From a virus (Duplodnaviria > Heunggongvirae > Uroviricota > Caudoviricetes), in the IMG/VR virus record IMGVR_UViG_3300032030_000021, positions 29,122 through 93,121 of that record: 64,000 nucleotides of DNA; one strand, written 5' to 3'. Positions 5,933 through 62,450 of this stretch are shown here, one piece after another. Below the pieces are notes generated by a model. That model did no database searches, was not told where the DNA came from, and saw nothing but the letters and a program-made list of their open reading frames with translations. How positions within the stretch are numbered: position 1 is the first letter of the stretch; each line of letters opens with the position of its first letter. A program made the position numbers and the translations under genes.

Positions 5933-6385
5933 ATGAAATCTATAACAGAATCTATAATAGGGAGAAAAAACTCGTATAAAGGAAAAGACCTTAAACAACT
6001 AATTCTTAGTGAAATAGATATGAAGGACTTTCCGTATATTCGAGAAACGTCTAAGAACTATAAAAACAATCTTCTAGACGATAAATTCTTATATGCACTG
6101 GATAATATCCAAGGATGCGATAATGATTTCAAGATTGCTGCAGTTTATGATATGATGGGATATATAGAGGCTCAGTATGATATTAATGCCGGCGATGATG
6201 GTGTTGCGGATCAAGGTGCATATAATATGATAGAGATGATATCCGATCCCAATCGGAATCAAAATGACTTTTACGCCTTCATACATACTCCTAGCCGTGG
6301 TGGAAATCCCTCCTGGTCCGGACTATCTCAGCAATATGCGGAAATAGCCGAACTTTTCTTAGATCCGGATTTTGAATTAATATAA
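5933..6385 (+). CDS. N-terminal MK..ESIIGRKG-tagged family protein (putative capsid-targeted internal protein)
   Basis: Starts MKSITESIIGRKNSY. Lies directly upstream of the prohead protease gene. Confidence 0.6.
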   Translation: MKSITESIIGRKNSYKGKDLKQLILSEIDMKDFPYIRETSKNYKNNLLDDKFLYALDNIQGCDNDFKIAAVYDMMGYIEAQYDINAGDDGVADQGAYNMIEMISDPNRNQNDFYAFIHTPSRGGNPSWSGLSQQYAEIAELFLDPDFELI

Positions 6386-6970: not shown

Positions 6971-6980
6971 ATTTTAAGAC

Positions 6981-8396
6981 ATGTCAAAAGTGCTGATATA
7001 TGAAAAGCTGAGCAATGTCACGGGTTTCAAGAAAGTAAGATCCGATGACGGCTTTATCAGATTATCGGGTGTCTTTGCCCAGAGTGGTGTTAAGAATCGT
7101 AATAATCGCACATACACCACGGAAAACTATTCTAAAATGATCGAAGGATTGAAAAAGAGAATCGTCGAAGAAGGTTGTCCTGGCGAATTAGAACACCCAA
7201 CAACTATGAACATTGATTACAACAACGTATCTCACATGGTAGAGTCCGTGGAGATTGATGAGAATGGTACGGTTACCGGCACTATCAAGCTTTTGGATAC
7301 CCCTAAGGGAAAGATTGCTCAAGCTCTAGTAGAAGGCGGATTGCCGCTATTTATTTCATCTCGCGCCACCGGCAATGTGGATAAAAACGGTATTGTAACC
7401 CTGGAGGAATTAAAAACTTATGATCTAGTAGGTACTCCGGGATTTGCTCAAGCCAGACTCCATTGTAATGAGGGTATGGTTGCCGAAAGCATCGATGATG
7501 ATATGTTCATCGTATATGAAAATGAAAATGACAATCAAAATAAACAAGAAAATACAATGGAAATCGAAGCCTTACATGAGGAATTACAAAACACCAGAGC
7601 GCTTCTTGAAGATATGACCAGCAAATATAAAGAATTGTTGGAATCTGTTAGAGAGTTGCGTGAAAAATCGTTTAATAACGATGTTGATGAACTTAGAAAC
7701 CTTGGCAATCAGAACAAGGGTCTGACCGAATCTCGGGTTCGTCAGATGATCGAGGAATCCGTAAATGGTGCGGTTACCGGTCTTATTGAAAAACTATCCG
7801 ATGGTATCGAGAAATGGATCGTGGAAGAGTACAGTCCCGAAATCGAGAAATGGATCGTGGAAGAGTACAGCCCCGAGATCGAGAAATGGATCGTGGAAGA
7901 GTATAGTCCCGAAATCGAGAAATGGATCGTGGAAGAATATTCACCGGAAGTTGAGAAATGGATCGTGGAAGAATATTCACCGGAAGTTGAAAACTGGCTT
8001 AATGAAGAATTCGCTCCCGAGACTCTTGGCGGCATGATTAAAGAAAGCAAACAAAGCAAGCTGGAAAATATTGATTCTATATTGGAGATGTTAGATGCCG
8101 ATAAAACCAAAAAGCCGGTTTTCGAAAGTTCTACTCCCAATGAACCGTATTTTATTGCCGCTATGCCGGAACATATCCGTCCGCTCTGGGAAAGCGCTTC
8201 CGATGAAATGAAATCTTATATTACGGAAAAAGCCCATATGTATACTTTGAATACCGATGAGAAAATCAAATACTTCTGGGAGAACAAAGTAGATTTCAAA
8301 AAAGAACTCCAGCCATCAAAGAATATCAATGAAGGATTGGATACCATTACGGACAATTTCGAGAAGAATCTGAGAATGGCTCTTCGTAAACGCTAA
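6981..8396 (+). CDS. prohead core protease (T4 gp21-like) fused to a scaffold-like coiled-coil/repeat domain
   Basis: The N-terminal ~170 aa aligns by eye with T4 gp21 ([52 protein letters not shown]). The C-terminal half is coiled-coil with five [12 protein letters not shown] repeats, each carrying I-x-E sites. An ATAAATAAAT box sits upstream. Confidence 0.7.
7806..7990 (+). repeat. 5 tandem copies of a 36-bp unit encoding ([13 protein letters not shown])
   Basis: Direct tandem repeats are visible in the DNA, with synonymous and near-synonymous variation between units. Confidence 0.85.
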
Positions 8397-8415: not shown

Positions 8416-8426
8416 TATAAATAAAT
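8416..8426 (+). promoter_or_regulatory. late-promoter-like box TATAAATAAAT upstream of tail sheath gene
   Basis: Same box as upstream of the protease gene, 11 nt before the ATG. Confidence 0.4.
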
Positions 8427-8436
8427 ATTAAAAATC

Positions 8437-14576: not shown

Positions 14577-14855
14577 ATGAAAGGAATTAAGAAACATATG
14601 TATGAAGCCGTCAATAATGTAGCGGGATCTATCGGTAATATCCTCACCGGACATAGTGAGGAGCTAGCTGCTATCACCAACAAAGAAGACTTGCTACAAT
14701 TCTTGGAAGAGGTGATCCGTCCGGAGATTGCTCCCCGATTCCAAGACGACATGGATGATCTGATCAAGGAAGTCAACAAGATGAGACAATTTCCTCGCGC
14801 CTATCGGGTGGTATATAACTATATTCTAGCGGGGGACAACCTGAGAGCCATCTAA
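14577..14855 (+). CDS. small hypothetical protein
   Basis: 92-aa ORF between the previous gene and a terminator. Confidence 0.4.
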   Translation: MKGIKKHMYEAVNNVAGSIGNILTGHSEELAAITNKEDLLQFLEEVIRPEIAPRFQDDMDDLIKEVNKMRQFPRAYRVVYNYILAGDNLRAI

Positions 14856-16936: not shown

Positions 16937-18043
16937 ATGGATGCACAAATCATCATAGGAGCCAATTATGGGGATGAAGGCAAAGGTACCGTCACTGCGC
17001 TGATCACGAATAAATATTTAGGAAACACTCTAAATGTACTGACTAACGGCGGATCTCAACGAGGTCATTCTATCCTCACCAAAGATGGATCTATCACTTA
17101 TCAGCACTTTGGATCCGGCACATATCATGATGCGGATTCTTTTTATTGTAATCGTTTCATCTTGAATCCGGCACAGTTCACTAAAGAATGGAATAATCTG
17201 ATAGAAAAACCCAATGTCTTTCGAGATCCAGGTTGCCTATGGACTACCGTTTGGGATATGATGGCTAATCGCATAGAAGAAGAACGGAAAAAAAGATTTG
17301 CGAGTTGTGGCATGGGTATCTGGAATACCATTAGGAGAAGCCGGAAAGTATATATGAGATTTGACGATTTCATGGCATTAACCAAAAAAGAGCAATCCGC
17401 CTTTCTCCGGAAGGTAAGGTCTTTTTATGAGAACCACTTAGATTTCTCCTCGTTCTGGAAAAAGATCTGGTACGATTATGATATTGAAACTCACTTTCTG
17501 GAAGATTGCCAATTCATGAAAGATCATACTATTTCCGGAACTATTCAAGAGCTCTTGGCTCTTAAAAGTTTATGTACAAATACATATGATAATATAGTGT
17601 TCGAAAACGGACAGGGACTTCTTCTTAAAGACACCGGAAGAGATACATTTGATACTACCCCGTCCGACACCGGAGCTACATATGCATTAGATATCATCAA
17701 AGATCTAGAAAAATGCGGAATGGAGTTTGACACTACTCTTCATTACGTCACTCGTCCATATCTTACCAGGCATGGAGATGGAAATATAAGCAATGAGAAC
17801 AAGAGAACTCACATTTCCGAATCTATCCGGGAGGATAGAACCAACCAATGGAATTCCAATCAAGGAGAGTTCCGGTATGGAAAATTAGATATGGGGGCAT
17901 TAAAAAGTCGCATCGAAGAAGATGCTCGTGGACACAAATATGTGTTAGATGTCACACACTGCGATGAGATGGATCGAAAAACGGAATTTGATAGGATTTT
18001 CGGACCGGAAAATATCCAATATATAGACACTCCAATGATTTAA
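16937..18043 (+). CDS. adenylosuccinate synthetase (PurA) family protein, short phage form (PurZ-like candidate)
   Basis: [20 protein letters not shown] matches PurA [31 protein letters not shown] matches QGGHNAGHTL. Later [11 protein letters not shown] matches FEGAQGTLLD. Length 368 aa versus ~430 aa for cellular PurA. Confidence 0.6.
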   Translation: [368 protein letters not shown]

Positions 18044-18047
18044 TTAC

Positions 18048-18076
18048 AGGTTCCTCCGGGAACCTTTATTATTTTT
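18048..18076 (+). terminator. rho-independent terminator after PurA-like gene
   Basis: AGGTTCCtccgGGAACCT plus T-rich tract. Confidence 0.6.
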
Positions 18077-18093
18077 AGAAAATTGATAGTCGT

Positions 18094-18558
18094 ATGAAGG
18101 ATCCGGAGAAAGTCGATGTAGTGCTTATAATGGAAGAACCACCCCGTATATATGAAGCAAAGGGTACCACGAAGCAATCCGGTTCTCTGGATCCCCGTAC
18201 CGACTACTCACCGGACTGGCTTCCGGATCATATAGAGTGGTTGAGGGGACTGGGCTCCGGATCTCAGAACAGCTTTGGCTATCAACTTCGAAATGCCCTG
18301 AGCCTGGGCGCTGGATATCAGGTAGAGGTTACGGATTTCAACGAAGCCATCTCTGTAAAGATCACTTATACTAATGTCCGGACTTGCAAGTCCGCCAGCT
18401 TGCACGCTTGTGTGGTGTTCCGTACTAAGTCCGGCGTATGCAATGCCTATATCAACGGACAAAGATTCCGGACTTGTAATAACGTCGGACAAGCCGCTTC
18501 TTATATACGGAATAAAGCTGCTGCCCTGATAGGTCGGACAACAACAATGGAGAGTTAG
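18094..18558 (+). CDS. hypothetical protein
   Basis: 154-aa ORF between a terminator and the tagged-family cluster. Confidence 0.4.
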   Translation: MKDPEKVDVVLIMEEPPRIYEAKGTTKQSGSLDPRTDYSPDWLPDHIEWLRGLGSGSQNSFGYQLRNALSLGAGYQVEVTDFNEAISVKITYTNVRTCKSASLHACVVFRTKSGVCNAYINGQRFRTCNNVGQAASYIRNKAAALIGRTTTMES

Positions 18559-18562
18559 GATT

Positions 18563-18976
18563 ATGAGGACATTACAGGAATCTATAATAGGGCGGCGAGG
18601 CTCTCAACATGGGCGTTCTAAATCAAAAGAGCTTAAGTGTTTTGAGGATTTGGAATATGGAGATATTGTAATTATCCAAAATCGCGCGCTTTCGGGCAGT
18701 AAATATTATATATATCTTCCTAAAGGAATATGTTACCTTCTATTCAATAGAACCCGGCTAAGAGAAGATGCATTTGTAACATGTAATCTGAATAACAATA
18801 TGGTACCATTATCTTATTGGAAGGCGGATGGGTTTAATCATTTTGATTTTCCGTTTTTCACAAGAAAAAGTGCGGAAATTGTAAGCTGCGAGGGACATGT
18901 TCAAGAATATTATTCTATAAAAACCGAAGAAGATGTTAAACGTATTTTTAATAAATACAATCTACCAATATCATGA
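18563..18976 (+). CDS. tagged-family protein (subfamily with DLEYGDIVIIQN core and IFNKYNLP C-terminus)
   Basis: Starts MRTLQESIIGRRGSQ. Overlaps the next gene by ATGA. Confidence 0.65.
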   Translation: MRTLQESIIGRRGSQHGRSKSKELKCFEDLEYGDIVIIQNRALSGSKYYIYLPKGICYLLFNRTRLREDAFVTCNLNNNMVPLSYWKADGFNHFDFPFFTRKSAEIVSCEGHVQEYYSIKTEEDVKRIFNKYNLPIS

Positions 18977-19377
18977 AAACACTGCAAGAATCTATAATAG
19001 GAAGAAAAGGATCTTCTATCCGTTCTAAATCAAAAGCGCTTAGGTGTTTTGGAGATTTGGAATATGGAGATATTGTAATTATCCAAAATTACTCACGTCG
19101 GGATAGCAAATATTATATATATCTTCCTAAAGAGATATGCTCGCCTCTATTTAATTTCTTAAGAGAAGATGCATTCGTAACATGTAATCTAAACGACAAA
19201 TTGGTACCATTATCTTATTGGAAGGCGGATGGCTTTAATTATTATGGTTTTCCGCTTTTCGCAGCAGGTGCCGCCGAAATTGTGAGTTATGAGGGGCATG
19301 TTCGAGAATACAATTCTATAAAAACCCAGGTAGATGTTAAACGCATTTTTGACAAATACAATCTACCAATATCATGA
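18973..19377 (+). CDS. tagged-family protein (same subfamily)
   Basis: Starts MKTLQESIIGRKGSS. C-terminus KRIFDKYNLPIS. Confidence 0.65.
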   Translation: MKTLQESIIGRKGSSIRSKSKALRCFGDLEYGDIVIIQNYSRRDSKYYIYLPKEICSPLFNFLREDAFVTCNLNDKLVPLSYWKADGFNYYGFPLFAAGAAEIVSYEGHVREYNSIKTQVDVKRIFDKYNLPIS

Positions 19378-19742
19378 GAACGTTGCAAGAATCCATAATA
19401 GGGCGAAAAGGCACACCATATCGAAAACCAATACCGAAAAGTTTTGATGATCTAGAATATGGGGATTTTATTGAGATAAGTGGAATTTTTGGCGGTACAT
19501 TTTTATATGTTCCGCATTCTGTGTCTGATATATATTTTAATAATAATGTGGATGCATTTATAAGACCTTCTGATTACTGGACGGCAGAAACCTTTAAATT
19601 TTCATTTCCATATCATAATACCGACAAAACTCATAAAATAGAAAAAATAATTGGGTCTGTTAGTGAAAATGAATATAGTAATTTGAAAACCAAAAAAGAC
19701 GTATCTCATCTTTTTAATAAATATAATATACCGAGCAAATGA
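19374..19742 (+). CDS. tagged-family protein (same subfamily)
   Basis: Starts MRTLQESIIGRKGTP. C-terminus SHLFNKYNIPSK. Confidence 0.65.
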   Translation: MRTLQESIIGRKGTPYRKPIPKSFDDLEYGDFIEISGIFGGTFLYVPHSVSDIYFNNNVDAFIRPSDYWTAETFKFSFPYHNTDKTHKIEKIIGSVSENEYSNLKTKKDVSHLFNKYNIPSK

Positions 19743-20392
19743 AAACACTTTATGAATCGATAATAGGAAGGAAAGGATCATATCTAGGTGGTGTCCCAGT
19801 AGTATTCTGGAATAAATATGACCCGACCGACATAAGTATCGTGATAGACATGCCCCGAAACGTCATAGGGGTTATAGAACAGTCAGATGAGGGTGATTGT
19901 ATTTTAGAAATAAAAAATCTTAATAGCATCCATATATTATATATGTCCGGCGAACCGGGTTGTACTGCTATCTTAGATACAAAATGCCGATTATTGAATG
20001 AATTTCAAAACAAGTTTGAATCGGAATATAATAGAGTTCTCTCCGGTGTAACCGTTCAAGATTTTATTAAAAGTTATTATAAATATGAATTACATGTGGG
20101 GGATGCATATATTCCCATAGGTAGTATATTGGTACGGGAAATAACAAAATCCATTCCCAGGACACACAAAATACTAGATATATTTGATCCGGATTATGCC
20201 TGGAATGCTTGGACAGAATTTATATGGAATATGCCGGATGCTACTTCTACTACCGGCCCATATTCATTCGGATATGCTATAGTGGATTTAGGGCATAAGA
20301 AAATAATTGAAAGTCCCCGTGGATATAATATTAATATAAGGATGGAAACTTTCAAAGAATTTGGACGGCATAATGAAAGATATGGGAATTAA
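19739..20392 (+). CDS. tagged-family protein, larger member
   Basis: Starts MKTLYESIIGRKGSY. 217 aa. Confidence 0.6.
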   Translation: MKTLYESIIGRKGSYLGGVPVVFWNKYDPTDISIVIDMPRNVIGVIEQSDEGDCILEIKNLNSIHILYMSGEPGCTAILDTKCRLLNEFQNKFESEYNRVLSGVTVQDFIKSYYKYELHVGDAYIPIGSILVREITKSIPRTHKILDIFDPDYAWNAWTEFIWNMPDATSTTGPYSFGYAIVDLGHKKIIESPRGYNINIRMETFKEFGRHNERYGN

Positions 20393-20401
20393 AAGAGACA
20401 C

Positions 20402-20758
20402 ATGAAGCATATCAGCGAATCTATAATAGGAAGAAAAGGAGGTACTTATAATTCATCTAAAATACCCGGAGATTGGTATCCGGGACAAGATCTGGAATAT
20501 GGGGATATTATAGTATCGAATTGGAAGAATATGTATTATATATGCCTTCCGGTTAAACAATGTATCGGATGGTGGGGTAGATATGACGGGCCAAGAGCTC
20601 AGACGGCCCTGATAAGATATAGTCCTTCTGGAGCTCGTTATACTAGTAACCTCGCAAGTGATTATCAATTTGTAAGATATATAAGAGAATATAAAAATAT
20701 AAAGACACCAGAAGATCTTAAACGCATTTTTGATAAATATAACATACCACACGAATGA
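20402..20758 (+). CDS. tagged-family protein (same subfamily)
   Basis: Starts MKHISESIIGRKGGT. C-terminus KRIFDKYNIPHE. Confidence 0.65.
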   Translation: MKHISESIIGRKGGTYNSSKIPGDWYPGQDLEYGDIIVSNWKNMYYICLPVKQCIGWWGRYDGPRAQTALIRYSPSGARYTSNLASDYQFVRYIREYKNIKTPEDLKRIFDKYNIPHE

Positions 20759-21330
20759 GAACACTTAGCGAATCTATAATAGGACGAAAGGGGAGTGTAG
20801 GATACCAATATGCTACACTAGGCCACCGAGACGAACTTATCTTGAGCGTCAATGCTATAGAACCTATTGGTAGTAAACCTACTAATTCCAATCCCCTACC
20901 TAAAGAAATTGTTTTTATATCCTGGGACGAAATCGGTATATATCCGGTAGTCACCGGATGTAGTACGGAAAACGAACTGAAACGGAAGATAATAAGCGTG
21001 TATGATGCACTGAAATCCACTAGCATGGAAGATATATGCAATCTGATGTGCATAGAATGGAAAGTTAAGTCCAATTGGTTCAAGTTTCCACTTTGGTGTG
21101 TGGTAGAATATTTCCGGGATGAGTGGGAGGATATGATGAATATAGATGTAACTGATCCACTAAGCAAATGGGCGTCTGATAGCGAATTGTATGATAAAAT
21201 TATTGCTTGGATAAAGGATACCCCATATCAATTTACTCCAGAAACCGAAATGTTTTGGTCTATAATAGATACTAATACCGGAAAGATAATAGCACGGAGC
21301 AGAACCGGCAAAATAATAATTGATAAATGA
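20755..21330 (+). CDS. tagged-family protein
   Basis: Starts MRTLSESIIGRKGSV. Confidence 0.6.
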   Translation: MRTLSESIIGRKGSVGYQYATLGHRDELILSVNAIEPIGSKPTNSNPLPKEIVFISWDEIGIYPVVTGCSTENELKRKIISVYDALKSTSMEDICNLMCIEWKVKSNWFKFPLWCVVEYFRDEWEDMMNIDVTDPLSKWASDSELYDKIIAWIKDTPYQFTPETEMFWSIIDTNTGKIIARSRTGKIIIDK

Positions 21331-21635
21331 GAACACTCAGCGAATCTATAATAGGACGGAAAGGAACTCGACCACAAACCAATATTATCAAGGATTGTCG
21401 CGATATGATTTCTAGAATAGACCATTCTCCATGGAAAGAAGCTATGGTGATGGCAACGAATTATTATGATGTCTTAATACAAAATAGATACCAATATCCC
21501 GAGGAAGTCCGGCAAATTATAGATGATTCTATAAACGAATGGTCCGGTAAGGTTTTATCTAAGATATCTAGCACCGACATTATGATACAGGCTATCAGGA
21601 GCATTTCCAATCTAGCTAAAAAACAAAGATCATGA
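21327..21635 (+). CDS. tagged-family protein
   Basis: Starts MRTLSESIIGRKGTR. Confidence 0.6.
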   Translation: MRTLSESIIGRKGTRPQTNIIKDCRDMISRIDHSPWKEAMVMATNYYDVLIQNRYQYPEEVRQIIDDSINEWSGKVLSKISSTDIMIQAIRSISNLAKKQRS

Positions 21636-22042
21636 AATCTATAACCGAATCTATAATAGGAAGAAGAGGAGTTTCCGGAAAACTACACAAATTCGACGAT
21701 TTAAAATACGGGGATTTTGTGGTTATTGATATGCCTGCCGAACAAAAAATGTTCGATTGCCTGTATGTACCGGAATATATTGCTATGAAAGTAATTTCTT
21801 ATCCTGGACCTACGGATGATTTTGGTCGATTTATATGTGTTGATCACAACGGTAAGGATATATCTTCTTTCCGGGCCGATAAGTTTGTAGATGACTTTCC
21901 GGATTGCCCCGAAGATGATGAATTTTTTTATAGTAAAATAGTAAATAAAATCGGCCATACGGAAGAATATGTTTCTTTAAAGGACAGAAAAGACGTGATA
22001 AATCTTTTTAAGAAATATAATTTAATAGGATTCCATCGCTAA
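21632..22042 (+). CDS. tagged-family protein (same subfamily)
   Basis: Starts MKSITESIIGRRGVS. C-terminus INLFKKYNL. Confidence 0.6.
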   Translation: MKSITESIIGRRGVSGKLHKFDDLKYGDFVVIDMPAEQKMFDCLYVPEYIAMKVISYPGPTDDFGRFICVDHNGKDISSFRADKFVDDFPDCPEDDEFFYSKIVNKIGHTEEYVSLKDRKDVINLFKKYNLIGFHR

Positions 22043-22077: not shown

Positions 22078-22106
22078 AACCACCTCAAAAGGGTGGTTTT
22101 ATTTTT
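22078..22106 (+). terminator. rho-independent terminator after tagged-family cluster
   Basis: AACCACCtcaaaaGGGTGGTT plus T-run. Confidence 0.65.
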
Positions 22107-22158: not shown

Positions 22159-24048
22159 ATGATTCTTAATGAAAACGAACAGAGATATCGCAATCTGATT
22201 TCCGAAGAATTGCATGTCACTGATGAAAGAAAACTGAACTGGATGGCTCAAATGGCCAATGTTCATGCCATCAAAGAAGGCTTGCAGCCCAATAATGTTA
22301 GTGCGGATCATGGCGGCATTTATGCTACTCCTCTGAACACATTAGGTATTGGCAATCCTTTCATGCCTCAGGGTCTTGGAATGAACAATCCTAATCTTGG
22401 TGATGGTATTGGCAACACCGGTGCCGATTTCCACAATCCTGCTTATGTTAATGGTTCCGGTGATGTTCCTATGTCTACTCTTTCTATGGCATTGGAAGTT
22501 GCAGCCGTTACCGTTGGTTTCGACTTGGTCGCTACCGTCGTGGCTACCGGCCCTATGGCTATGTTGACCTTCGTTGATTATCCTTATGCTGGTGGTAAAC
22601 TCGGTCACATTGGCGAGACCTGGCAAGATGGCATTGGTCCTGACAACGAGAACAAACCCATTTACATCATGTTGAAGGGTGACATGGAAACCTCTATGAA
22701 GTTCCGCGACAATGAAAACGTAGAACCCGGCCGTACTACCGTGACGATCACCGGTGACACCGGCAAGTTCATTGGTATCTATATGGGCAACTCCCGTATC
22801 GACGGTTCCGCAATCTTCCAAGTGAAGAGTGTGAAGGAAGACGATAAAGATATTTCTATCGCTCAAATGTTCCAGAAGGAAGGCGTGTTCACAACCGATG
22901 CTAAAGATAAAGATGGTAATGATATCGTATTCGGTAAAGCCGGTACGCCGGGTTCCGGTACCGAAGGTGAAGATGACTATGTTGCTCCTACCGAAGGTAC
23001 TAATGTGAGACTGATCCCGGAACTGGTGAAAGGTATCACCGATCACATCCAGTCATTCTCTAACTTCTTCGGAAACAGAGTTGAGAATGAAGATGGTTCT
23101 TATAGCGTTGTTCCTTCCGACGATCCTATGACCAGAGCTCAAAACGAAACCGGTACTGGTAACACTATTGGTGTTCGTATGTTCTCTAAGATGATCCAAA
23201 TGGGTAACTATGAAGTGACCGGTGCTGTTACTCGTCAGCAGCTTCAAGATATGCCTCTGTATGGCATCGATGTTATTGGTGGTGTATTGGAAGCTTGTCA
23301 GGCCGAGATTTCCCAGGCTCTGAACAACCGTATCATCGACCGCGTTATGAAACTTGGTGTTGAGAACTACAAAGTACAGAAAGCCGTTCAAGGCTGCGAC
23401 TTCAACCTCTACCTCGGCAACGTAGTTAAGGAAGATGGTTCCGCTAACCTGTACAAACCTCTTAACGAGTTCAAGGCATACAACAAGTTCCGCGATTTGA
23501 ATGGTAAAACCGTTCCTTCCGTGAACATTCCGAACGCTACTAAGAACTCCAGCGCCGAGAACGTTACTACTCACCAGAGACGTATTGCTTCTCGTTGTAT
23601 GGCCGCTTCTAACTTGATCTCCAGCGTTACCCGTAGAGGTCGTGCTCATTGGATCCTGACCAATGCTCAGATCCTGACCGCTCTGCAGGATTGCTCCGGT
23701 TATGTGGTAGCTCCTATGGTTAACAATCTGGTTCAAGGTGGTGAAGAGAGCTTGTACTACGCAGGTTCTATTGCCGGTATGCAGATCTATGTTGATCCTT
23801 ACATGCTGTGGGAAGACACTCGTATCTGCGTTGGCCGTAGAGCTACCGTTACTAACAACCAAGTTCAAGGTTCCGGTGTGGTCTTCATGCCGTACATCCT
23901 CGCAGACACTGTGCAAATCGTTGCAGAAGGCACCATGGCTCCTAAGATGCTGGTGAATAGTCGTTATGCAATTGTAGACGCAGGTTTCTATCCCGAGCAG
24001 AATTACTATACCTTCATGGTGGAAACTGATTCTGATTTCATTATCTAA
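22159..24048 (+). CDS. major capsid protein, T4 gp23-like
   Basis: SMALEVAAVTVGFDLVATVVATGPMAMLTFVDYPYAG resembles gp23 VMGMVRRAIPNLIAFDICGVQPMNSPTGQVFALRAVYG. C-terminal HWILTNAQILTALQDCSGY...YYAGSIAGMQIYVDPYM resembles gp23 NFIIASRNVVNVLASVDTGISY...VFAGVLGGKYRVYIDQYA. Upstream region has AAATAAAT boxes. Confidence 0.7.
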   Translation: MILNENEQRYRNLISEELHVTDERKLNWMAQMANVHAIKEGLQPNNVSADHGGIYATPLNTLGIGNPFMPQGLGMNNPNLGDGIGNTGADFHNPAYVNGSGDVPMSTLSMALEVAAVTVGFDLVATVVATGPMAMLTFVDYPYAGGKLGHIGETWQDGIGPDNENKPIYIMLKGDMETSMKFRDNENVEPGRTTVTITGDTGKFIGIYMGNSRIDGSAIFQVKSVKEDDKDISIAQMFQKEGVFTTDAKDKDGNDIVFGKAGTPGSGTEGEDDYVAPTEGTNVRLIPELVKGITDHIQSFSNFFGNRVENEDGSYSVVPSDDPMTRAQNETGTGNTIGVRMFSKMIQMGNYEVTGAVTRQQLQDMPLYGIDVIGGVLEACQAEISQALNNRIIDRVMKLGVENYKVQKAVQGCDFNLYLGNVVKEDGSANLYKPLNEFKAYNKFRDLNGKTVPSVNIPNATKNSSAENVTTHQRRIASRCMAASNLISSVTRRGRAHWILTNAQILTALQDCSGYVVAPMVNNLVQGGEESLYYAGSIAGMQIYVDPYMLWEDTRICVGRRATVTNNQVQGSGVVFMPYILADTVQIVAEGTMAPKMLVNSRYAIVDAGFYPEQNYYTFMVETDSDFII

Positions 24049-34397: not shown

Positions 34398-34856
34398 ATG
34401 AAACATATAAGCAAATCTATTACGGAGTCTATTATAGGAAAGAAAGGATCGGATAATATTGATATTATAGCCGATATATTTTTAAAATTTTTCGGAAGCT
34501 ATCTGAAAAAACCGGAAATTGGCGAAATAGCGTTGTATATAGATGTTGATAAAAGCCATTATACCGGCCAAGACTTCCAGTATGATTTCGCATTTGTGAG
34601 GAACGATATTGGTACATATAGGAAAATAGCGGCGTCTTTTGCTAATGCTATCAATGGAAATATCTATAAAGAATCTTCCGGATTCAAAGGTGGAGTTTGG
34701 TATTGGGATCCGGAAACTATTATAGAAATACCGAATGTGAAATTTTATATAGGGAGAAGGCTCGGAAACAGAAGACACCCTAAGGACATATCCAATACGA
34801 CTTATATCAGCATATCAAATAAGATGTTGTGGATGAAAATATATGAAATGTTATAA
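34398..34856 (+). CDS. tagged-family protein with 4-aa insertion in the tag
   Basis: Starts MKHISKSITESIIGKKGSD. Confidence 0.6.
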   Translation: MKHISKSITESIIGKKGSDNIDIIADIFLKFFGSYLKKPEIGEIALYIDVDKSHYTGQDFQYDFAFVRNDIGTYRKIAASFANAINGNIYKESSGFKGGVWYWDPETIIEIPNVKFYIGRRLGNRRHPKDISNTTYISISNKMLWMKIYEML

Positions 34857-34859
34857 AAC

Positions 34860-34904
34860 ATGAAACATATAAGCAAATCTATTGCGGGGTACCGACCGAT
34901 CTAG
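34860..34904 (+). pseudogene. duplicated 5' fragment of the tagged-family gene at 34398
   Basis: atgaaacatataagcaaatctatt is identical to the first 24 nt of 34398..34856, then diverges and hits a stop after 14 codons. It is followed by a second copy of the AAGGACTCGAAAGAGTCCTT terminator hairpin. Confidence 0.55.
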
Positions 34905-37695: not shown

Positions 37696-38520
37696 ATGAA
37701 GACAATAGTAGAATCTATAATAGGAAGAAGAGGGTCTAATAAAAAATTATATATAGTAAGTCCGAAAGGTTCGGATAACTATTTATATTGGAATAGTAAG
37801 TTTACTTATAATGGAGTTGCGGATAGTCGAGGGTACTTTTATTTTGTTTTGACAAAAGATGAACTCCAAAAATTTCTTCCGCAGGAGCCGGATACTAGCA
37901 TTTATTTAGTCGATGACGATACCGTAGATTATAAGAAATTGGAACAAGATGTGGAAAAAACAAAAGATCTTTTAAATAATCCTCTTATATACTTAAAAAA
38001 AGTAGACGTAATGTCTATCAGCGAATCTATAATAGGACGAAAAGGTGTGCCGAAAGAAAACGGGACCGTATGGGGAATGCTTTCCCCGCTTTTCGACCCG
38101 CATGTAGAAACCACACACGATATCAATCATTTGGTATATATATTTACGGCCCCGATTATGAAGGTTAAAAAAACATATACCAATATATTTAATATCATGT
38201 GTGATGCAATAACACTATTCAGACATTCCGCTTATTTATTTCCCACGGCAGCATGTGCCGAAAAAGATTACTTATATGTATTAAATGAGGTAAGTGTGAA
38301 TCTTAATGTAATTAGAGATGGGCGGATTGCCGGTTCTTGGACCGAATCTATCCAAAGACTGGAGGAACGGAAAGAAGTATCTTCTAAATTGAAAAAGATA
38401 AGCAGGAAACTCATCGATTTTGATCTCTCGGGAATAAATGAAATCGCATTCCGATACTATTTCGATAATAAGAAACAACCGATGACATTAGAAATGATTA
38501 ATATAGATATTGCTATATAA
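37696..38520 (+). CDS. tagged-family protein, in-frame tandem fusion of two tagged modules
   Basis: Starts MKTIVESIIGRRGSN. A second complete tag MSISESIIGRKGVPK starts in frame at nt 38011 with no stop between them. Confidence 0.55.
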   Translation: MKTIVESIIGRRGSNKKLYIVSPKGSDNYLYWNSKFTYNGVADSRGYFYFVLTKDELQKFLPQEPDTSIYLVDDDTVDYKKLEQDVEKTKDLLNNPLIYLKKVDVMSISESIIGRKGVPKENGTVWGMLSPLFDPHVETTHDINHLVYIFTAPIMKVKKTYTNIFNIMCDAITLFRHSAYLFPTAACAEKDYLYVLNEVSVNLNVIRDGRIAGSWTESIQRLEERKEVSSKLKKISRKLIDFDLSGINEIAFRYYFDNKKQPMTLEMINIDIAI

Positions 38521-38536
38521 CTTAAAAAGGATCGAT

Positions 38537-38920
38537 ATGAAATCTATAAAGGAATCTATAATAGGAAGAAGGAATACATCAATACAGAGGACATTAATAA
38601 TCATACCGGTACATGAAGATGCACATTTTATGTATGATTCGATTAATTCAAGTAATGGTATAATTCGAACAAGATCTAAGAATGGTTGGGATATTTTTGT
38701 TTTATCTATCCGGGATGCCACCTATGATTTAATCGTAAATATTAGAAGTAAATATACAAAAATATGTATTGCGGAGCTCCCTGTAAAAAATGTTATAGAT
38801 TTGTGTTATAAAATGCATGTGGGCATATTATTCAAGAGCAATGCTCTTAATAGCATTCCTCCGGAATTCAAAGAAATCACGAAAGAGGATTGTATAAAAT
38901 TATTAAAACAAAATAAATAA
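38537..38920 (+). CDS. tagged-family protein
   Basis: Starts MKSIKESIIGRRNTS. The track ORF starts upstream at 38510. Confidence 0.6.
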   Translation: MKSIKESIIGRRNTSIQRTLIIIPVHEDAHFMYDSINSSNGIIRTRSKNGWDIFVLSIRDATYDLIVNIRSKYTKICIAELPVKNVIDLCYKMHVGILFKSNALNSIPPEFKEITKEDCIKLLKQNK

Positions 38921-38924
38921 AAAC

Positions 38925-39326
38925 ATGAAACACATCAGCGAATCTATAATAGGGAGGAAAGGAGCGGGGCAGTTTCAGTCTATAATAATTGTTCCATTGG
39001 AATCGGATTATATGACTTTCAGTAATAATATATCTTATGTGGTCCCGTTTGATTTTGGGTCTGGTAATATATGGAAGGGGTTTGCTACGATATGGGATAA
39101 TGCGGAAGATATTTTCCGGAACATCATATGGCCACAAACTAAGATATTTATATCCGGCATGCCTGTGGATGATTTTATCAAAGAATTTACTCGCACCAAC
39201 AAACGTTCTCGATCTATAATGACAGTTAAAGTTAATGCTCAGAAAAGTTATCTTATAAATCCGCCGGAGGGAGCCAGACAGATAACCTTAGACGAACTTA
39301 GAAATATTGTCAAAAAATATAAATAG
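38925..39326 (+). CDS. tagged-family protein
   Basis: Starts MKHISESIIGRKGAG. Confidence 0.6.
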   Translation: MKHISESIIGRKGAGQFQSIIIVPLESDYMTFSNNISYVVPFDFGSGNIWKGFATIWDNAEDIFRNIIWPQTKIFISGMPVDDFIKEFTRTNKRSRSIMTVKVNAQKSYLINPPEGARQITLDELRNIVKKYK

Positions 39327-39330
39327 AAAA

Positions 39331-39777
39331 ATGAAAGACTTCAAAAAATATATAACCGATAAGAAAGAGATCTCCGCCGGATTCTTATTTGAGACTCCGG
39401 AGGGATTTTTGTTAGTCCATCCCACCGCTAGGGCTAAAAGCAAGGGTAATTGGGATATCCCTAAAGGACATATTGAAACCGGAGAATATCCGCTAGAGGC
39501 GGCTATTAGGGAATTAAAAGAAGAAACCGGACTGGATTATAATCCGGACTGGGAAACGGACTTTTTAGGACAATTCAACTATACTCTTACTAAAGATCTT
39601 TTATTATATCATCTTCATTGTCCGGTGGTACCAGATGTCAAGAAATGCAAGTGTACTTCTTATTTTGATCTTAACGGCAAAGAGACTCCGGAAAATGATG
39701 ATTTCATGATCACTAAGGAATTAGAATATACGTTTCATTCTATGCAGAAGATATTAAAAAAATTGGGACTGCTATGA
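39331..39777 (+). CDS. NUDIX hydrolase
   Basis: Nudix box GHIETGEYPLEAAIRELKEETGL. The first ATG is at 39331; the track ORF started at a TTG at 39307. Confidence 0.7.
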   Translation: MKDFKKYITDKKEISAGFLFETPEGFLLVHPTARAKSKGNWDIPKGHIETGEYPLEAAIRELKEETGLDYNPDWETDFLGQFNYTLTKDLLLYHLHCPVVPDVKKCKCTSYFDLNGKETPENDDFMITKELEYTFHSMQKILKKLGLL

Positions 39778-40127
39778 AAACTATAAAAGAATCTATAATA
39801 GGGAGGAAAGGAGTGCATTCTCCGGAGTTATATATATTTCATCCGTGTGCTGAAGATTATGATTTAGCTTTAGATATTTTGCCGAAGGAACATATGGTTA
39901 AAACAAAGGATGGGCCGTTTTTTTATTGTATAGATAAAATTGAATTAGAACGGTATCTTAGGAAAGTAGGACAACATAAACTTATCGGGCCTAATATACA
40001 CAGAAAATTAAACGGGTCCAGTACTCTGTATAAGGTAATAGGTTCCTCCGATCTCGATCAAATAAAGGATTTATTAAAAACTCACCCGTTTGTTGAATTA
40101 AAGAATTTGGTGATCCGTATTGCTTAA
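39774..40127 (+). CDS. tagged-family protein
   Basis: Starts MKTIKESIIGRKGVH. Confidence 0.6.
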   Translation: MKTIKESIIGRKGVHSPELYIFHPCAEDYDLALDILPKEHMVKTKDGPFFYCIDKIELERYLRKVGQHKLIGPNIHRKLNGSSTLYKVIGSSDLDQIKDLLKTHPFVELKNLVIRIA

Positions 40128-40684: not shown

Positions 40685-41074
40685 ATGAAACACATCCATG
40701 AATCTATAATAGGTAGAAAAGGTACAAATTCAATTAAATTATGGCTGCTATACCCTGTAGTCAAGGATTTTTATATCGCATTAGAAGTGTTGCCGAGGGA
40801 CTGTAGGATTTATTGGGATAATACGTCTTTGTTTTGTGTAAACCGCCAACAATTAAAAGAGTTTTTTGATAATCTTTCAAATGATAATATGTTTACCGAC
40901 CCGAATAGTGCTCTATTTGAGATAAATCCACACTATTTAAGAAATATTAAAGATGTGAAAGATTGGATAGTCGGTTTATCTTCCGATAATTGGAAAGATT
41001 TTGATTTAATATATAAAGCTGAAGAATTAAATCAGATAACTGTCGATATTCCAAAATATATTAAAAGTTTATGA
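40685..41074 (+). CDS. tagged-family protein
   Basis: Starts MKHIHESIIGRKGTN. Confidence 0.6.
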   Translation: MKHIHESIIGRKGTNSIKLWLLYPVVKDFYIALEVLPRDCRIYWDNTSLFCVNRQQLKEFFDNLSNDNMFTDPNSALFEINPHYLRNIKDVKDWIVGLSSDNWKDFDLIYKAEELNQITVDIPKYIKSL

Positions 41075-41701: not shown

Positions 41702-42127
41702 ATGAAACATATAAATGAATCTATAATAGGAAGAAAAGGAATTACCAGTATTCCGAAGCTGGAAAATCATGATATTGTTAAATTAGACAATGATCATTAC
41801 TACATGGTTGTCTTAGATGAATATGAGATGAAACTCGCTAAACTAGATTTTTTTAAAAGCCAGGTCACGGAAGGGATCCTTTTAAGATATGAAGCATCTA
41901 GCCGGTCTTGGTCTTGGCAACCAATAAATGAATATAGTCTGCTGGACTTAAAAATAAACCCGAAATTTAAAAGCACAATATCACTAGACATATGTGAAGT
42001 ATATCGGAGTCTTTCGGCTATCACTACTAAATATAACAATCATCTATATATGTGGTGTGATGAAGAAAATATGAAAGAAAAAATCAAAAAAGGATACGGA
42101 GTTTATAAATTATTGTGGAAAAGATAA
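41702..42127 (+). CDS. tagged-family protein
   Basis: Starts MKHINESIIGRKGIT. Confidence 0.6.
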   Translation: MKHINESIIGRKGITSIPKLENHDIVKLDNDHYYMVVLDEYEMKLAKLDFFKSQVTEGILLRYEASSRSWSWQPINEYSLLDLKINPKFKSTISLDICEVYRSLSAITTKYNNHLYMWCDEENMKEKIKKGYGVYKLLWKR

Positions 42128-42151: not shown

Positions 42152-42577
42152 ATGAAGACATTACAAGAATCTATAATAGGAAGAAAGAATTCGAGCTCGG
42201 TTCTAAAACATGATCGCACGGGGCTTTATGAGGGTGATATAGTCTATTTTAAATGCCATCCGTATAAACCATATGTAGTTATATTAAATCCTGATATATA
42301 TAAAAAATTCCTGTTACCGAGATCATTGAAAGATTATGATTGTACGGAGGGGGTCCTCATAACCCCCGGTAGAGATGGTTCTTATGGATTTATGGTTCTA
42401 TCGGATTATGATAAAAATCTTAAATTTACGGAAAACTCCGATCCGTGGAACATAACTGAAGTAAAAAGAGGATATATTGGATCACATCGGCTTGATAAAT
42501 TATTAAATGATATAGATGGCATATATGACATATCGAGAGGTTTTAAAACCGTTTTTGAAAACGGGAAATGGCTATAA
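42152..42577 (+). CDS. tagged-family protein
   Basis: Starts MKTLQESIIGRKNSS. Confidence 0.6.
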   Translation: MKTLQESIIGRKNSSSVLKHDRTGLYEGDIVYFKCHPYKPYVVILNPDIYKKFLLPRSLKDYDCTEGVLITPGRDGSYGFMVLSDYDKNLKFTENSDPWNITEVKRGYIGSHRLDKLLNDIDGIYDISRGFKTVFENGKWL

Positions 42578-47770: not shown

Positions 47771-48169
47771 ATGAAACATATACATGAATCTATAATAGGG
47801 AGAAAAGGAATCGATAAAAACCGAACAGATATGTTAATGCCCGGGGATATTGTGGAATATGACTTTCGAGACACACATTTTTGGAGATTTATTCCGAAAC
47901 GATATATACCCGATGGTGTTTGGAAAGATATCTTAAAAGCAAACCCCCCAAAAAACTCCAATTTATTGGTAGCTCTGGCTTGGAGCAATAATAAATCCTA
48001 TTATTGTACTTGGGTAGATCTTGGAAATATTATCAGACCCGACGAATTGGTTGGTAATAGATTTGGACAGGTATGGAGACAGAAAGATGTATGGGTGTAT
48101 GAAAAACCGGAGGACTTGCGCATAATGTTAAATGATCTGGAAACGGCTAGAATAATCAAAGAAGATTAA
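47771..48169 (+). CDS. tagged-family protein
   Basis: Starts MKHIHESIIGRKGID. Confidence 0.6.
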   Translation: MKHIHESIIGRKGIDKNRTDMLMPGDIVEYDFRDTHFWRFIPKRYIPDGVWKDILKANPPKNSNLLVALAWSNNKSYYCTWVDLGNIIRPDELVGNRFGQVWRQKDVWVYEKPEDLRIMLNDLETARIIKED

Positions 48170-48170: not shown

Positions 48171-48575
48171 ATGATATCTATCAAAGAATCCATCATAGGA
48201 AAAAAGGGGTATATCAGTGTACCTACATTGCAACAAGGAGATATTATAATTACTCGGCGTGATGATATATACATGGTACTGACGGATCAAGATTGTTTGA
48301 AAAAAATTCTAAATCCGGATAGTTTCAGATATTATGATATGTCAAAAGGGGCATATGTGCGCGGCGGTGGTGGAGGCGCAGGTTTCATGGATCTTAGTTC
48401 CTTTAATGACAAATTAGAAAATACCGATGGTTCTGACGTTTACGACATATTCCAAGTATGGAGGAATCCCCGGAAACAGAATAATATCACTTCCAATGAT
48501 GATATTAATCAAATTATTCAAACAGAAAATTTAAAACTCTTAAAAAAATCTTATAAATTAATCTGGGAGAGATGA
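48171..48575 (+). CDS. tagged-family protein
   Basis: Starts MISIKESIIGKKGYI. Confidence 0.55.
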   Translation: MISIKESIIGKKGYISVPTLQQGDIIITRRDDIYMVLTDQDCLKKILNPDSFRYYDMSKGAYVRGGGGGAGFMDLSSFNDKLENTDGSDVYDIFQVWRNPRKQNNITSNDDINQIIQTENLKLLKKSYKLIWER

Positions 48576-48919
48576 GACATATCAGCGAATCTATAATAGG
48601 GAGAAAAAATGCGCCTGTTGCCGAATATTGGATAGAATTCGGTGGATTGGATCCCAAGTTACTTAAGCAATATGCGAAAGGCGATATATCTTTCACGGAT
48701 CTGACTATGGGATTAGTAGCGGAAGAGATCACATACACCGATCCAAAAGACAATTTCACGGAAACCGATATGCTTCAATTCGCTAAACAATTTATAAACA
48801 AGAAGTATAAATTCCCGAAAATGGTATATGCTCGCGTTATGGATAAACATAAAGAAGTAATAGATACTATCTATGGCCGGGATTTTCAATACGATTTAGA
48901 TAAATATTGCAAGAAATAA
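48572..48919 (+). CDS. tagged-family protein
   Basis: Starts MRHISESIIGRKNAP. Confidence 0.6.
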   Translation: MRHISESIIGRKNAPVAEYWIEFGGLDPKLLKQYAKGDISFTDLTMGLVAEEITYTDPKDNFTETDMLQFAKQFINKKYKFPKMVYARVMDKHKEVIDTIYGRDFQYDLDKYCKK

Positions 48920-49332
48920 TGAAACACATACAGGAATCTATAATAGGAAGAAAATCGGCTTCGATAAGCAAATCGTCTATATCGGATGGGGATATTTTAG
49001 AAACCCGAGCCGGAGTGGCATTTGTATATATATCCGAAGATACTTGGGATAAAAATCTGAGCGGTCATTTTCCTGGTGGAGCTCTCGTTAATCCGGATGA
49101 TCCCAATTTTGATTTTGACTCGGTTACCAATAAATTTGATTATTGGCATGATGACCTGACGGGATCCGAAAGACATTTTGATATTGTCAAGATATACAAA
49201 GTTGATAATGATCAAAAACAGGCATATTATACGGCACTCAAAATAAAAGTCCTCCGGATTAAACGGTCTATATTAAAATCATATATCGAGAATATTATAA
49301 GTCATGCAACCCCAGTATCTATAAATAAATAG
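48919..49332 (+). CDS. tagged-family protein
   Basis: ATG at 48919 gives MKHIQESIIGRKSAS. The track ORF starts 4 codons earlier. Confidence 0.6.
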   Translation: MKHIQESIIGRKSASISKSSISDGDILETRAGVAFVYISEDTWDKNLSGHFPGGALVNPDDPNFDFDSVTNKFDYWHDDLTGSERHFDIVKIYKVDNDQKQAYYTALKIKVLRIKRSILKSYIENIISHATPVSINK

Positions 49333-61018: not shown

Positions 61019-61279
61019 TTGGTTGATTCTTATTGGTTTAACACCTTTTATAAGATCCTTTAATTGATTTTGAGTCAAAAAATCCGGTTTTGCTTTGATA
61101 GGATATACTTCAATTATATCAAATTTATGATCCTCGGGACATTCCATATTTTTGGAATAGCTTGATATAGGCATCCAGGTGGGAATATTGTCATATATAT
61201 ACCCGGGTTTGAGCATATCTTTAGTAAACCTTGCCAGGGATCCTTTCCTTCCTATTATAGATTCTTGAAGCGTTTTCAT
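61016..61279 (-). CDS. tagged-family protein (FTKDMLKPGYI subfamily)
   Basis: Starts MKTLQESIIGRKGSLARFTKDMLKPGYI. C-terminus IRINQ. Confidence 0.6.
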   Translation of the reverse strand: MKTLQESIIGRKGSLARFTKDMLKPGYIYDNIPTWMPISSYSKNMECPEDHKFDIIEVYPIKAKPDFLTQNQLKDLIKGVKPIRINQ

Positions 61280-61698
61280 TGATTGATCTTTAATGGATTA
61301 ATATTCCTTACGAGCTTCCCCAATTCTTGGCTGGATAAAAACTCCGGTTTCATTTTAATAGGATACACCTCAATTATATCAAAATCAGAGCCTCCCTTTT
61401 CAGAACATAAATCCTCCGAATAATAAGACAATGGAGACCATCCGGGATGGTCTTCATACTTTTCTTTTGTTATAAATGCACCCATATCATTATTTTTTCG
61501 CAAATGGGTAATAACATGAGATATTGTAAGCGTTTTAGTATCTTGATATTTTTCTATATCTTCAAGACTGAAATACATGCTAAATTCATTATATAGATTA
61601 TATCTATATTTTACAATATATCCGGGTTTGAGCATATCCTTAGTGAACTTTATTGGAGTTCCTTTCCTTCCTATTATGGATTCCTGAAGCGTTTTCAT
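61276..61698 (-). CDS. tagged-family protein (same subfamily)
   Basis: Starts MKTLQESIIGRKGTPIKFTKDMLKPGYI. C-terminus LKINQ. Confidence 0.6.
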   Translation of the reverse strand: MKTLQESIIGRKGTPIKFTKDMLKPGYIVKYRYNLYNEFSMYFSLEDIEKYQDTKTLTISHVITHLRKNNDMGAFITKEKYEDHPGWSPLSYYSEDLCSEKGGSDFDIIEVYPIKMKPEFLSSQELGKLVRNINPLKINQ

Positions 61699-62078
61699 TG
61701 ATTGATTTTTATTGGAGCAACTCCTTTTGTAAGATGTTTTAAATATTCTTGATCCAGGAGTTGGGGTTGTGTTTTAACTGGCCACACTGTTATGATGTCT
61801 AAATTTTTATTACCTCTAGTATGTTTTAGGTCATCATTATATGCACCTACTGGCATCCAAGATAAATCGACATGTTTCATTGAAAAAAATCCACCTTCTC
61901 CGTTCATACGAGGACCCAAGGATCTAGTTCGAGATATTCTTACTGCATCTTCATAATCCAAATACATACCTAACTCACCATCCCGATATTGGACTATATA
62001 CCCCGGCTTGAGCATATCTTTGGTGAACCTTGCCGGAACTCCTTTTCTCCCTATTATAGATTCTTGCAATGTTTTCAT
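61695..62078 (-). CDS. tagged-family protein (same subfamily)
   Basis: Starts MKTLQESIIGRKGVPARFTKDMLKPGYI. C-terminus IKINQ. Confidence 0.6.
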   Translation of the reverse strand: MKTLQESIIGRKGVPARFTKDMLKPGYIVQYRDGELGMYLDYEDAVRISRTRSLGPRMNGEGGFFSMKHVDLSWMPVGAYNDDLKHTRGNKNLDIITVWPVKTQPQLLDQEYLKHLTKGVAPIKINQ

Positions 62079-62081: not shown

Positions 62082-62450
62082 CTATCTGATTTGCATGAAC
62101 ATCCAATTGCCGATGTCATCTATAATATCTTTTAAAATTTCTTTATCTCCACCAATTTCCCTTGCAATCTTATCCAAACTTTGATCATTTAATATTTCAT
62201 CCGGAGCATTTTCTAAAAATTCGTCTATCCACTCCGCTCTTTCCCGGTCGCTAATATCGTGATTTCCCGCTTCCGTTACGGCATTTTTAATTTTATTAAA
62301 AACATCTCTCATAGCATTAAAAGAAACACCATGTTTTTCCGCTAATTCTTCTATTTCAGTATTATTATCAAGAGCCTTTTCTAGTTTAGGGACGATTCTG
62401 CTATAATTAATGCCTTTTCTGCCAATTATGGATTCCGTCAGAGTTTTCAT
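62082..62450 (-). CDS. tagged-family protein, acidic helical member divergent from the sigma gene
   Basis: Starts MKTLTESIIGRKGINYS. Confidence 0.55.
   Translation of the reverse strand: MKTLTESIIGRKGINYSRIVPKLEKALDNNTEIEELAEKHGVSFNAMRDVFNKIKNAVTEAGNHDISDRERAEWIDEFLENAPDEILNDQSLDKIAREIGGDKEILKDIIDDIGNWMFMQIR

Follow-up and report, generated by a model that had tools for sequence, protein, structure and literature searches.

Internal proteins of phage T4 begin with MKTYQEFIAE, the capsid-targeting sequence (CTS). A single cut takes it off, and some 1000 molecules of internal protein remain in the head (PMC8442874). The protease gp21 cuts after L/I-X-E. In the T4 CTS, residues 4 and 7 matter most for targeting and residues 8 and 10 for processing, and Asp10 blocks processing while packaging is still allowed (PMC9026906). 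T-even internal proteins form a very varied group of more than 30 variants with the CTS alone in common (PMC3012670, PMC2839356). Their genes are confined to two small loci, and the shuffling of these genes has been attributed to flanking promoter/stem-loop elements (PMC2839356, PMC4122927). Here we describe a stretch of 64,000 nucleotides from a member of the Caudoviricetes (positions 29,122 to 93,121 of IMG/VR record IMGVR_UViG_3300032030_000021; hereafter the window), in which 27 small genes share a 13-residue N-terminal peptide, the tag. We propose that the tag is a lineage-specific "class 2" derivative of the T4-type capsid-targeting propeptide and that the DNA encoding it is also an exchange joint, a reading that we regard as probable though well short of certain. 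A first-pass annotation, made from the sequence of the window alone, had presented the family as undescribed. This was overstated, since the T-even internal proteins were already known as a diverse set sharing only the CTS (PMC3012670, PMC2839356).

A 13-residue tag on unrelated bodies

The tag has the consensus M-[KR]-x-[LI]-x-E-S-I-I-G-[RK]-[KR]-G in the window genes, and one form of the class 2 peptide is MKTLQESIIGRKG. A strict six-frame search of the window with the pattern M[KR]xxxExIIG[RK] gave 24 open reading frames (ORFs), and looser scans with inspection added five more occurrences of the tag. The first-pass annotation had listed about 29 tagged ORFs in seven clusters. The seven clusters stand, while the 29 occurrences are made up of 27 genes, one internal copy and one remnant. 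The tagged ORFs are 87-274 amino acids (aa) long, and the window scans confirmed the range given earlier for the bodies.

The family extends well beyond the window. An exhaustive HMMER scan with a profile of the first 40 residues, run against 1.84 billion cluster representatives from public genomes and metagenomes (E <= 0.001), gave 107 representatives at <=50% identity, every one of 30-275 aa; a word-indexed protein search with the tag profile gave ten candidates only. The match begins at residue 1 in 104 of the 107 and at residues 8-10 in the other three. Altogether, 328 distinct tagged proteins were collected. The motif [LI]-x-E at positions 4-6, which had been called invariant in the window, holds in 327 of them, position 4 being I or L in 327, and this is a match to the gp21 motif at the level of sequence. 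The x of this motif, position 5, is the most variable position within the tag (2.85 bits). Position 7 is Ser in the window tags and Ala in the lineage of the related locus L019. Position 10 is Gly in all 328 tags, a residue that the collecting pattern required. Directly after residue 13 the entropy jumps from about 1 bit to about 3-4 bits, and a polar linker rich in Ser, Lys and Pro follows. In the window members we found no hydrophobic h-region, lipobox Cys or twin-Arg in the tags. Sec, Tat and lipoprotein signal peptides are ruled out because the tag has none of these features, which agrees with the earlier argument against a signal peptide or lipobox.

The bodies behind the tag are diverse. 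When the tag is removed, 95 distinct tagged proteins from the window and close relatives fall into at least 39 clusters (BLAST E < 1e-3). In the window itself, BLAST of the bodies gives two subfamilies, of 7 and 5 members, and about 15 singletons, so the single paralogous family of the first-pass annotation was not upheld. A GD[IV]V element recurs behind the tag in many bodies. Two AlphaFold models, one a beta-barrel and one alpha/beta, represent at least two folds. Most of the tag is modeled at low confidence, with a predicted local distance difference test (pLDDT) score below 50 for residues 1-4 and 6-18 of the beta-barrel model and, within the tag of the alpha/beta model, for residues 5-7 and 10-14. 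Searches with Pfam and PHROGs on ten window members, and with Pfam on 89 tagged representatives, gave nothing meaningful, and phmmer of four singletons against PDB sequences gave no match. Profile searches and structure prediction had been proposed as a way to find anti-defence folds, and the bodies match no known family and no fold with a function assigned to it. Bodies that are unrelated to one another bear the tag as a detachable module.

CTS-like N-termini of two classes

The nearest deposited phages by capsid protein (about 30% identity) are the Prevotella Lak megaphages and other huge metagenomic phages, along with Sphingomonas phage PAU, Tenacibaculum pT24 and Chryseobacterium MA9V. Because of these relatives, we place the phage, by sequence comparison, among the T4-related jumbo phages, as a divergent member. 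The host probably belongs to the Bacteroidota, given the same relatives and the lack of Shine-Dalgarno sequences, none of which was seen upstream of the phage's genes. The gp21 homolog and the gp23-like capsid protein of the first-pass annotation were both borne out by Pfam matches (Table 1), the capsid protein being that at 22159-24048; the gene beside the protease encodes the tail sheath. The protease scores higher on S77 than on S80. Its scaffold-like half contains a coiled coil and 4.6 tandem copies of a 36-nucleotide (nt) unit (7806-7972), which translate, over 7806-8010, to about five repeats, each with an I-V-E that fits the gp21 cleavage rule.

Relatives of the phage carry N-termini that follow the T4 CTS. 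In contig L018, whose capsid protein is 59% identical to that of the window, small ORFs beside the capsid gene start with MKPLQEYLNE, MKTLVEYITE, MKTLQEHISE, MKTLFEYIIE, MKSLHEYLDE and MKSLMDFINE. We call this T4-like pattern class 1; its position 7 is aromatic and its positions 8-10 read [LI]-x-E. In L019, which was found via homologs of subfamily A1, class 1 tags (MKSLLEYVNES, MKNLHEFIMES and MKDLIEYINEG) adjoin the class 2 tags MKTLKEALIGRHN, MKSLSEALIGRHN and MRQLKEALIGKSN, and its A1-family bodies carry the class 2 tag as MKQLKEALIG[RK], with conservative substitutions and other codons. In the loci of the lineage, about 397 kb in all, there are about 10 class 1-like ORFs versus 166 class 2 ORFs, a ratio that is biased because the loci were retrieved for holding class 2 DNA. 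In the window, the 92-aa product of 14577-14855 starts with MKGIKKHMYEA, a class 1-like N-terminus that is kept in the relatives L017 and L050. By its sequence, it could be a canonical CTS-bearing head protein.

Phage PAU (NC_019521), which is cultured, has a similar set. Of its approximately 295 genes, 19 start with MK[TSG][LI]xxL[YF]E. Among them are gp152, annotated as the scaffold, and four of the five genes to which the depositors gave the note "internal capsid protein" (gp142, gp154, gp199 and gp270, not gp70; Fisher P = 6e-5). Indirect support for a putative place of tagged proteins in the mature head comes solely from these notes. Many of the PAU tags continue with KLNEA, a second L-x-E site. 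Tagged genes of PAU are found in the interval from portal to protease and in that from protease to capsid gene, positions that match those of the window genes 5933/6391 and 18563-22042. We found no description of the PAU tagged family in the literature searched.

The class 2 tag fits the T4 CTS consensus at positions 1-4, 6 and 8 but not at 7 and 10. It keeps the first six positions as M-K-[THS]-[LI]-x-E, and after Gly10 comes the basic [RK]-[KR]-G. The T4-type processing site at 8-10 is lost because position 10 is Gly, not Glu. The likeness to the T4 CTS that had been proposed therefore holds in part: the T4-type head genes and the CTS-like tags of relatives support it, and positions 7 and 10 depart from it. 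As judged from these sequences, the window tag is a derived form within the clade's wider family of CTS-like N-termini. With its free x and the small residue that follows, the motif [LI]-x-E at 4-6 has the look expected of a gp21-type site, and cleavage after Glu6 is plausible. Such a cleavage would leave SIIGRKG on the mature class 2 protein, whereas T4 leaves no such stretch.

Tag-coding DNA, exchange junctions and alternatives

The first-pass annotation held that the peptide, not a DNA element, is conserved. This did not survive analysis of the codons, since a 14-nt core, GAATCTATAATAGG, is also fixed at synonymous sites. With <=2 mismatches, the 14-mer occurs 31 times in the window versus 1.67 expected, and none of the shuffles reached 31. 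Every hit with 0-1 mismatch belongs to a tag and is read in this frame, whether it opens a gene or lies in the internal tag; the one exception is on the minus strand at 40602, within another ORF. Ile 8-9 is encoded by ATA in 51/54 cases, against a fraction of 0.54 in the member bodies (binomial 4e-11). Ser 7 is TCT in 22/27 (0.30 in the bodies; binomial 5e-8) and Gly 10 is GGR in 25/27 (0.55; 2e-5). Ile 4 is less uniform (ATA 9, ATC 6, ATT 1; Fisher P = 8e-4 versus positions 8-9), and the Leu, Arg and Lys codons of the tag follow background usage. The core codons are fixed likewise in L017, a relative retrieved via its capsid gene and not via the tag; the fixation is weaker or absent in L019 and PAU.

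Other readings of the tag were considered. AU-richness as the cause of the codon fixation was rejected because ATT would serve equally well as ATA. An internal promoter built on the TATAAT in the tag was rejected because it would transcribe a truncated gene only, and a hairpin because the tag is no palindrome. The idea that the tag mimics the L27/Prp cleavage motif was also rejected: the phage has no Shine-Dalgarno sequences and its relatives infect Bacteroidota, which to our knowledge lack the L27/Prp cleavage system.

Homology between the window and its relatives breaks at the tags. In comparisons with eight independent relatives, 33/56 ends of homology blocks in the clusters fall within tags, and tag intervals make up 10.4% of cluster length. 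The block 17005-18591 stops at the final base of the first 14-mer. Of two further blocks, 19389-20440 begins at a tag core and reaches into the tag that follows, and 21326-21663 spans the distance from one tag to the next. Homology to L056 ends within the tag of 37696 and restarts at the internal tag core, at 38023. In P0078, the first module and the internal tag are as in 37696-38520, and an unrelated body follows. The first 24 nt of the remnant at 34860-34904 are identical to the start of 34398, and direct repeats of tag DNA therefore flank the 34398 body. The tag DNA looks like a cassette-exchange joint because the core is fixed synonymously and the homology blocks break at the tags. In its simplest reading, which is consistent with these sequences, the tag DNA would provide homology for unequal and inter-phage exchange of bodies.

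The array genes abut or overlap by 4 nt, without intergenic space, and terminator-like hairpins are found only at the array ends (18048-18065 and 22078-22098). The motif TATAAATAAATAT, which resembles a T4 late promoter, occurs at 6960-6972 and 8416-8428, about 10 nt 5' of the start codons for protease and tail sheath. In many of the other gaps between genes there is a terminator hairpin and then TTATATATA. In a scan of the window, neither motif places the tagged clusters in a temporal class.

We suggest the following scheme. The flexible N-terminal tag would dock small proteins onto the scaffold core of the assembling prohead, and the gp21-family protease (6981-8396) would probably cut after Glu6 of [LI]-x-E. 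The mature proteins would then remain in the head and enter the cell along with the DNA. The tag-coding DNA of about 40 nt, with its core GAATCTATAATAGG, is the sole sequence common to otherwise unrelated genes and would act as a homology joint for the gain, loss and swap of bodies between related phages. As an outcome, the phage would hold an exchangeable set of cargo genes. Targeting to the head, the site of cleavage, ejection and any part in anti-defence are inferred, the last of which is suggested by analogy with a single precedent, T4 IPI. A full dual role, in which the peptide loads cargo into the prohead and the DNA is a synonymously fixed recombination joint that trades cargo among jumbo phages, is possible but on balance doubtful. 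If true, this would be an integron-like system for the exchange of injected proteins, in which a 13-residue label would mark out hundreds of uncharacterized cargo proteins that may act against host defences or in host takeover.

Several points weigh against our proposal. Class 2 tags lack the aromatic residue at 7 and the Glu at 10, positions that are reported to matter in T4 (PMC9026906). The lineage still has class 1-like tags, in L019 side by side with class 2, and therefore the two classes may differ in destination or fate. Five of the seven tagged clusters sit among replication and nucleotide-metabolism genes. The isoelectric points of the bodies have a median of 6.4 (>8 in 9/26, <6 in 11/26), whereas T4 internal proteins are basic. 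The late-promoter-like motif TATAAATAAATAT was not found directly 5' of the tagged clusters. The junction statistic is expected under any replacement of bodies in which the tags are conserved. In addition, the phage is known from metagenomes alone, and the origin of the "internal capsid protein" notes of PAU could not be traced.

Some of these points would also fit an N-terminal peptide that directs proteins elsewhere than the capsid, such as to a partner in host or phage that all of them share, to a different compartment of the virion, or into a shared regulatory or turnover pathway. The likeness to the CTS would then reflect descent, with the function not retained. Such a destination would account for the differences from class 1 and T4 at the important positions 7 and 10 (PMC9026906), for the coexistence of the classes in L019 and the window lineage, which suggests diverged function, for the majority of clusters lying among non-structural genes, and for S-I-I-G-[RK]-[KR]-G being far more conserved than any part of the class 1 tags. 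However, export signals are excluded by the lack of a hydrophobic core, Cys or twin-Arg, two clusters lie at the exact head-module positions of the PAU class 1 genes, and class 1 shares residues 1-6 and the [LI]-x-E rule. We consider a non-capsid destination unlikely, and we favor a tag that directs its proteins to the head.

It is more improbable still that the conserved element is mainly a nucleic-acid signal, with the peptide largely a by-product of the reading frame. The signal might serve in recombination, in the binding of a phage protein or, as an mRNA operator, in the joint regulation of all members, and GAATCTATAATAGG does contain TATAAT, is fixed synonymously while the flanking tag codons are at background, and coincides with breaks in homology; a non-coding tag remnant is also present. 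Yet the L019 lineage keeps the peptide E-A-L-I-G with varied codons (GCT/GCA; TTG/CTT/CTA), the PAU tag codons vary ordinarily, and outside the core M, K/R, L/I, E, R/K, K/R and G are kept through synonymous change. But for the minus-strand hit at 40602, the motif with 0-1 mismatch is also always in frame at a gene start or internal tag. An ordinary fast-evolving paralogous family, whose N-terminus is simply the slowest-evolving structural piece with no separate tag role, is very hard to reconcile with at least 39 unrelated body clusters, with the abrupt fall of conservation past residue 13, and with two confidently modeled bodies that differ in fold and in both of which the tag is mostly of low confidence. 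That several members group into subfamilies, and that GD[IV]V recurs after the tag in many bodies, would speak for such a family, and we give it very little weight.

If the CTS-derived tag is a packaging signal, it offers a simple sequence rule to list the injected repertoire of an uncultivated jumbo-phage clade. More than 300 distinct tagged proteins have been collected, none matching a known family. T4 internal proteins include an inhibitor of a host restriction enzyme, and because of this precedent the tagged set could be a pre-sorted pool to screen for new functions in anti-defence or host takeover. A coding sequence doubling as an exchange joint would be a compact route to rapid evolution of cargo. 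The tag could also serve to load foreign proteins into large capsids. PAU is a practical system for testing the tag because it is cultured.

Gene neighborhood and known systems

The window has a G+C content of 38.5% and no tRNA genes. Among GenBank phages, Megablast found nothing that matched the head genes or the array. A tblastn search with a tagged N-terminus had no match either. The tag DNA is absent from a set of one genome per bacterial and archaeal species, and therefore gives no clue to the host.

Table 1. Tagged genes of the window and neighboring genes of the head, tail and replication modules
Feature	Position	Strand	Basis or remark
Class 2 tagged gene, 150 aa, acidic, just 5' of prohead protease	5933..6385	+	position matches PAU gp149-150
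Divergent tagged gene, MKTITESILDRING, 153 aa	6391..6852	+	looser scan
Prohead protease, gp21/S77 family (residues ~1-220), fused to scaffold-like C-terminal half	6981..8396	+	Peptidase_S77 43.3 bits, cut-off 27
Tail sheath, not capsid protein	8437-11427		
Tagged gene, subfamily A1, beta-barrel body	18563..18976	+	regular expression, AlphaFold model
Tagged gene, subfamily A1	18973..19377	+	
Tagged gene, subfamily A1	19374..19742	+	
Tagged singleton, 217 aa, homologs in close relatives only	19739..20392	+	
Tagged gene, subfamily A1	20402..20758	+	
Tagged singleton, 191 aa	20755..21330	+	
Tagged gene, 102 aa	21327..21635	+	
Tagged gene, subfamily A1, last of array before capsid gene	21632..22042	+	
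Major capsid protein, gp23 family	22159..24048	+	Pfam Gp23 81.1 bits, cut-off 24.4
Tagged gene, variant tag MKHISKSITESIIGKKG	34398..34856	+	
Tag remnant, 15 codons, MKHISKSIAGYRPI then stop	34860..34904	+	
Helicase	35766-37541		
Fused two-module tagged gene, 274 aa; internal in-frame tag 38008-38046	37696..38520	+	
Tagged gene, alpha/beta "LYIVxP..DY" body type	38537..38920	+	
Tagged gene, "LYIVxP..DY" body type	38925..39326	+	
Tagged gene, "LYIVxP..DY" body type, AlphaFold-modeled member	39774..40127	+	
Tagged gene, "LYIVxP..DY" body type	40685..41074	+	
Tagged singleton, 173 aa	41071..41592	+	
Tagged gene, subfamily A2 ("GDIV")	41702..42127	+	
Tagged gene, subfamily A2	42152..42577	+	
gp32-like single-stranded DNA-binding protein	44921-46015		
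Baseplate wedge	46079-47767		
Tagged gene	47771..48169	+	
Tagged gene, tag MISIKESIIGKKG, subfamily A2	48171..48575	+	looser scan
Tagged gene	48572..48919	+	
Tagged gene, subfamily A2	48919..49332	+	
DNA polymerase	50418-53369		
Tagged gene, subfamily A2, 87 aa	61016..61279	-	
Tagged gene, subfamily A2	61276..61698	-	
Tagged gene, subfamily A2	61695..62078	-	
Tagged singleton, acidic, helical	62082..62450	-	

Other genes stand close to the tagged clusters. A NUDIX hydrolase gene (39328-39777; N-terminus MKDFKKYITDKKE) and a gene for a multi-pass membrane protein (40143-40670) are embedded in the tagged array 37696-42577. Two paralogs of the FkbM methyltransferase family (34999-35769 and 49369-50154) each lie directly 3' of a tagged cluster. 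A sigma-factor-like gene (62518-63495), with matches to Sigma70 region 2 and region 4 just under the Pfam cut-offs, is transcribed divergently from the minus-strand tagged cluster. Directly after the capsid gene are tandem paralogs of about 520-540 aa (24175-25737 and 25734-27353), for which PHROGs gives the label homing/HNH endonuclease and Pfam gives DUF7487 only. Two large proteins with BspA-type leucine-rich repeats (LRR_5; 330-4016 and 4030-5373) may be host-recognition proteins; their genes lie 5' of the protease region, where the portal gene might be expected. An adenylosuccinate-synthetase-family gene (16937-18043) has the PHROGs label "2-aminooxy adenylosuccinate synthetase", which we take to mean PurZ-like. 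Together with a radical-SAM gene that is presumably QueE-like (60081-60986) and a dCTP-deaminase-like gene (13666-14187), its sequence suggests modified bases in the phage DNA.

Among known systems, that of T4 and the T-even phages is close in plan. IPI, IPII and IPIII are likewise small unrelated proteins with only a short N-terminal tag that starts M-K-T. The L/I-x-E motif, a gp21-family protease and a gp23-family capsid protein are also present in the window phage, and in both cases the loci that hold the genes are variable and differ from one close relative to another. However, the window tag is 13 residues long, with an invariant E-S-I-I-G, a basic [RK][KR]G and its sole [LI]-x-E at 4-6. 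The T-evens have a handful of such genes per phage, whereas the window has 27 in 64 kb, in seven dispersed clusters, and the family comprises at least 107 clusters at 50% identity. T4 IPI-III are highly basic (PMC8442874), while the window proteins are not mainly basic and are known from genes alone.

PAU belongs to the same phage clade as the window, with a capsid identity of about 34% over 86% of the query aligned, and its tagged genes also flank the protease and capsid genes. It differs in having a class 1-like tag with an L-[YF]-E site and ordinary codons, whereas the window tag is class 2, nucleotide-fixed and more numerous. In phiKZ-like giant phages, head, inner-body and ejection proteins are processed by the S80 protease at S/A/G-x-E. 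Many head-internal proteins cut after Glu by a gp21-related protease resemble the scheme proposed for the window, but the window protease is closer to S77 than to S80, and its capsid protein is of the gp23 family. We know of no common N-terminal tag described for the phiKZ-like head proteins.

The promoter-stem-loop (PeSL) cassettes of T4-like phages, which mediate the shuffling of modules, and analogous elements at the T-even IP loci also have a short conserved repeat between small variable genes at junctions of insertion, deletion and replacement (PMC2839356, PMC4122927). That repeat is an intergenic promoter with a GC-rich stem-loop, whereas the window repeat is the first 13 codons and lies inside the coding region. 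The array genes do not have an intergenic promoter and stem-loop flanking each ORF. In the literature searched, we found no CTS-like tagged families in the jumbo clade related to PAU and Lak, no class 2 tag, no expansion of such size, and no coding-sequence tag that coincides with exchange junctions. Diverse CTS-tagged internal proteins are already known from T-even phages, and the set in the window is unusual in its scale, in the sequence of its tag and in the position of its junctions.

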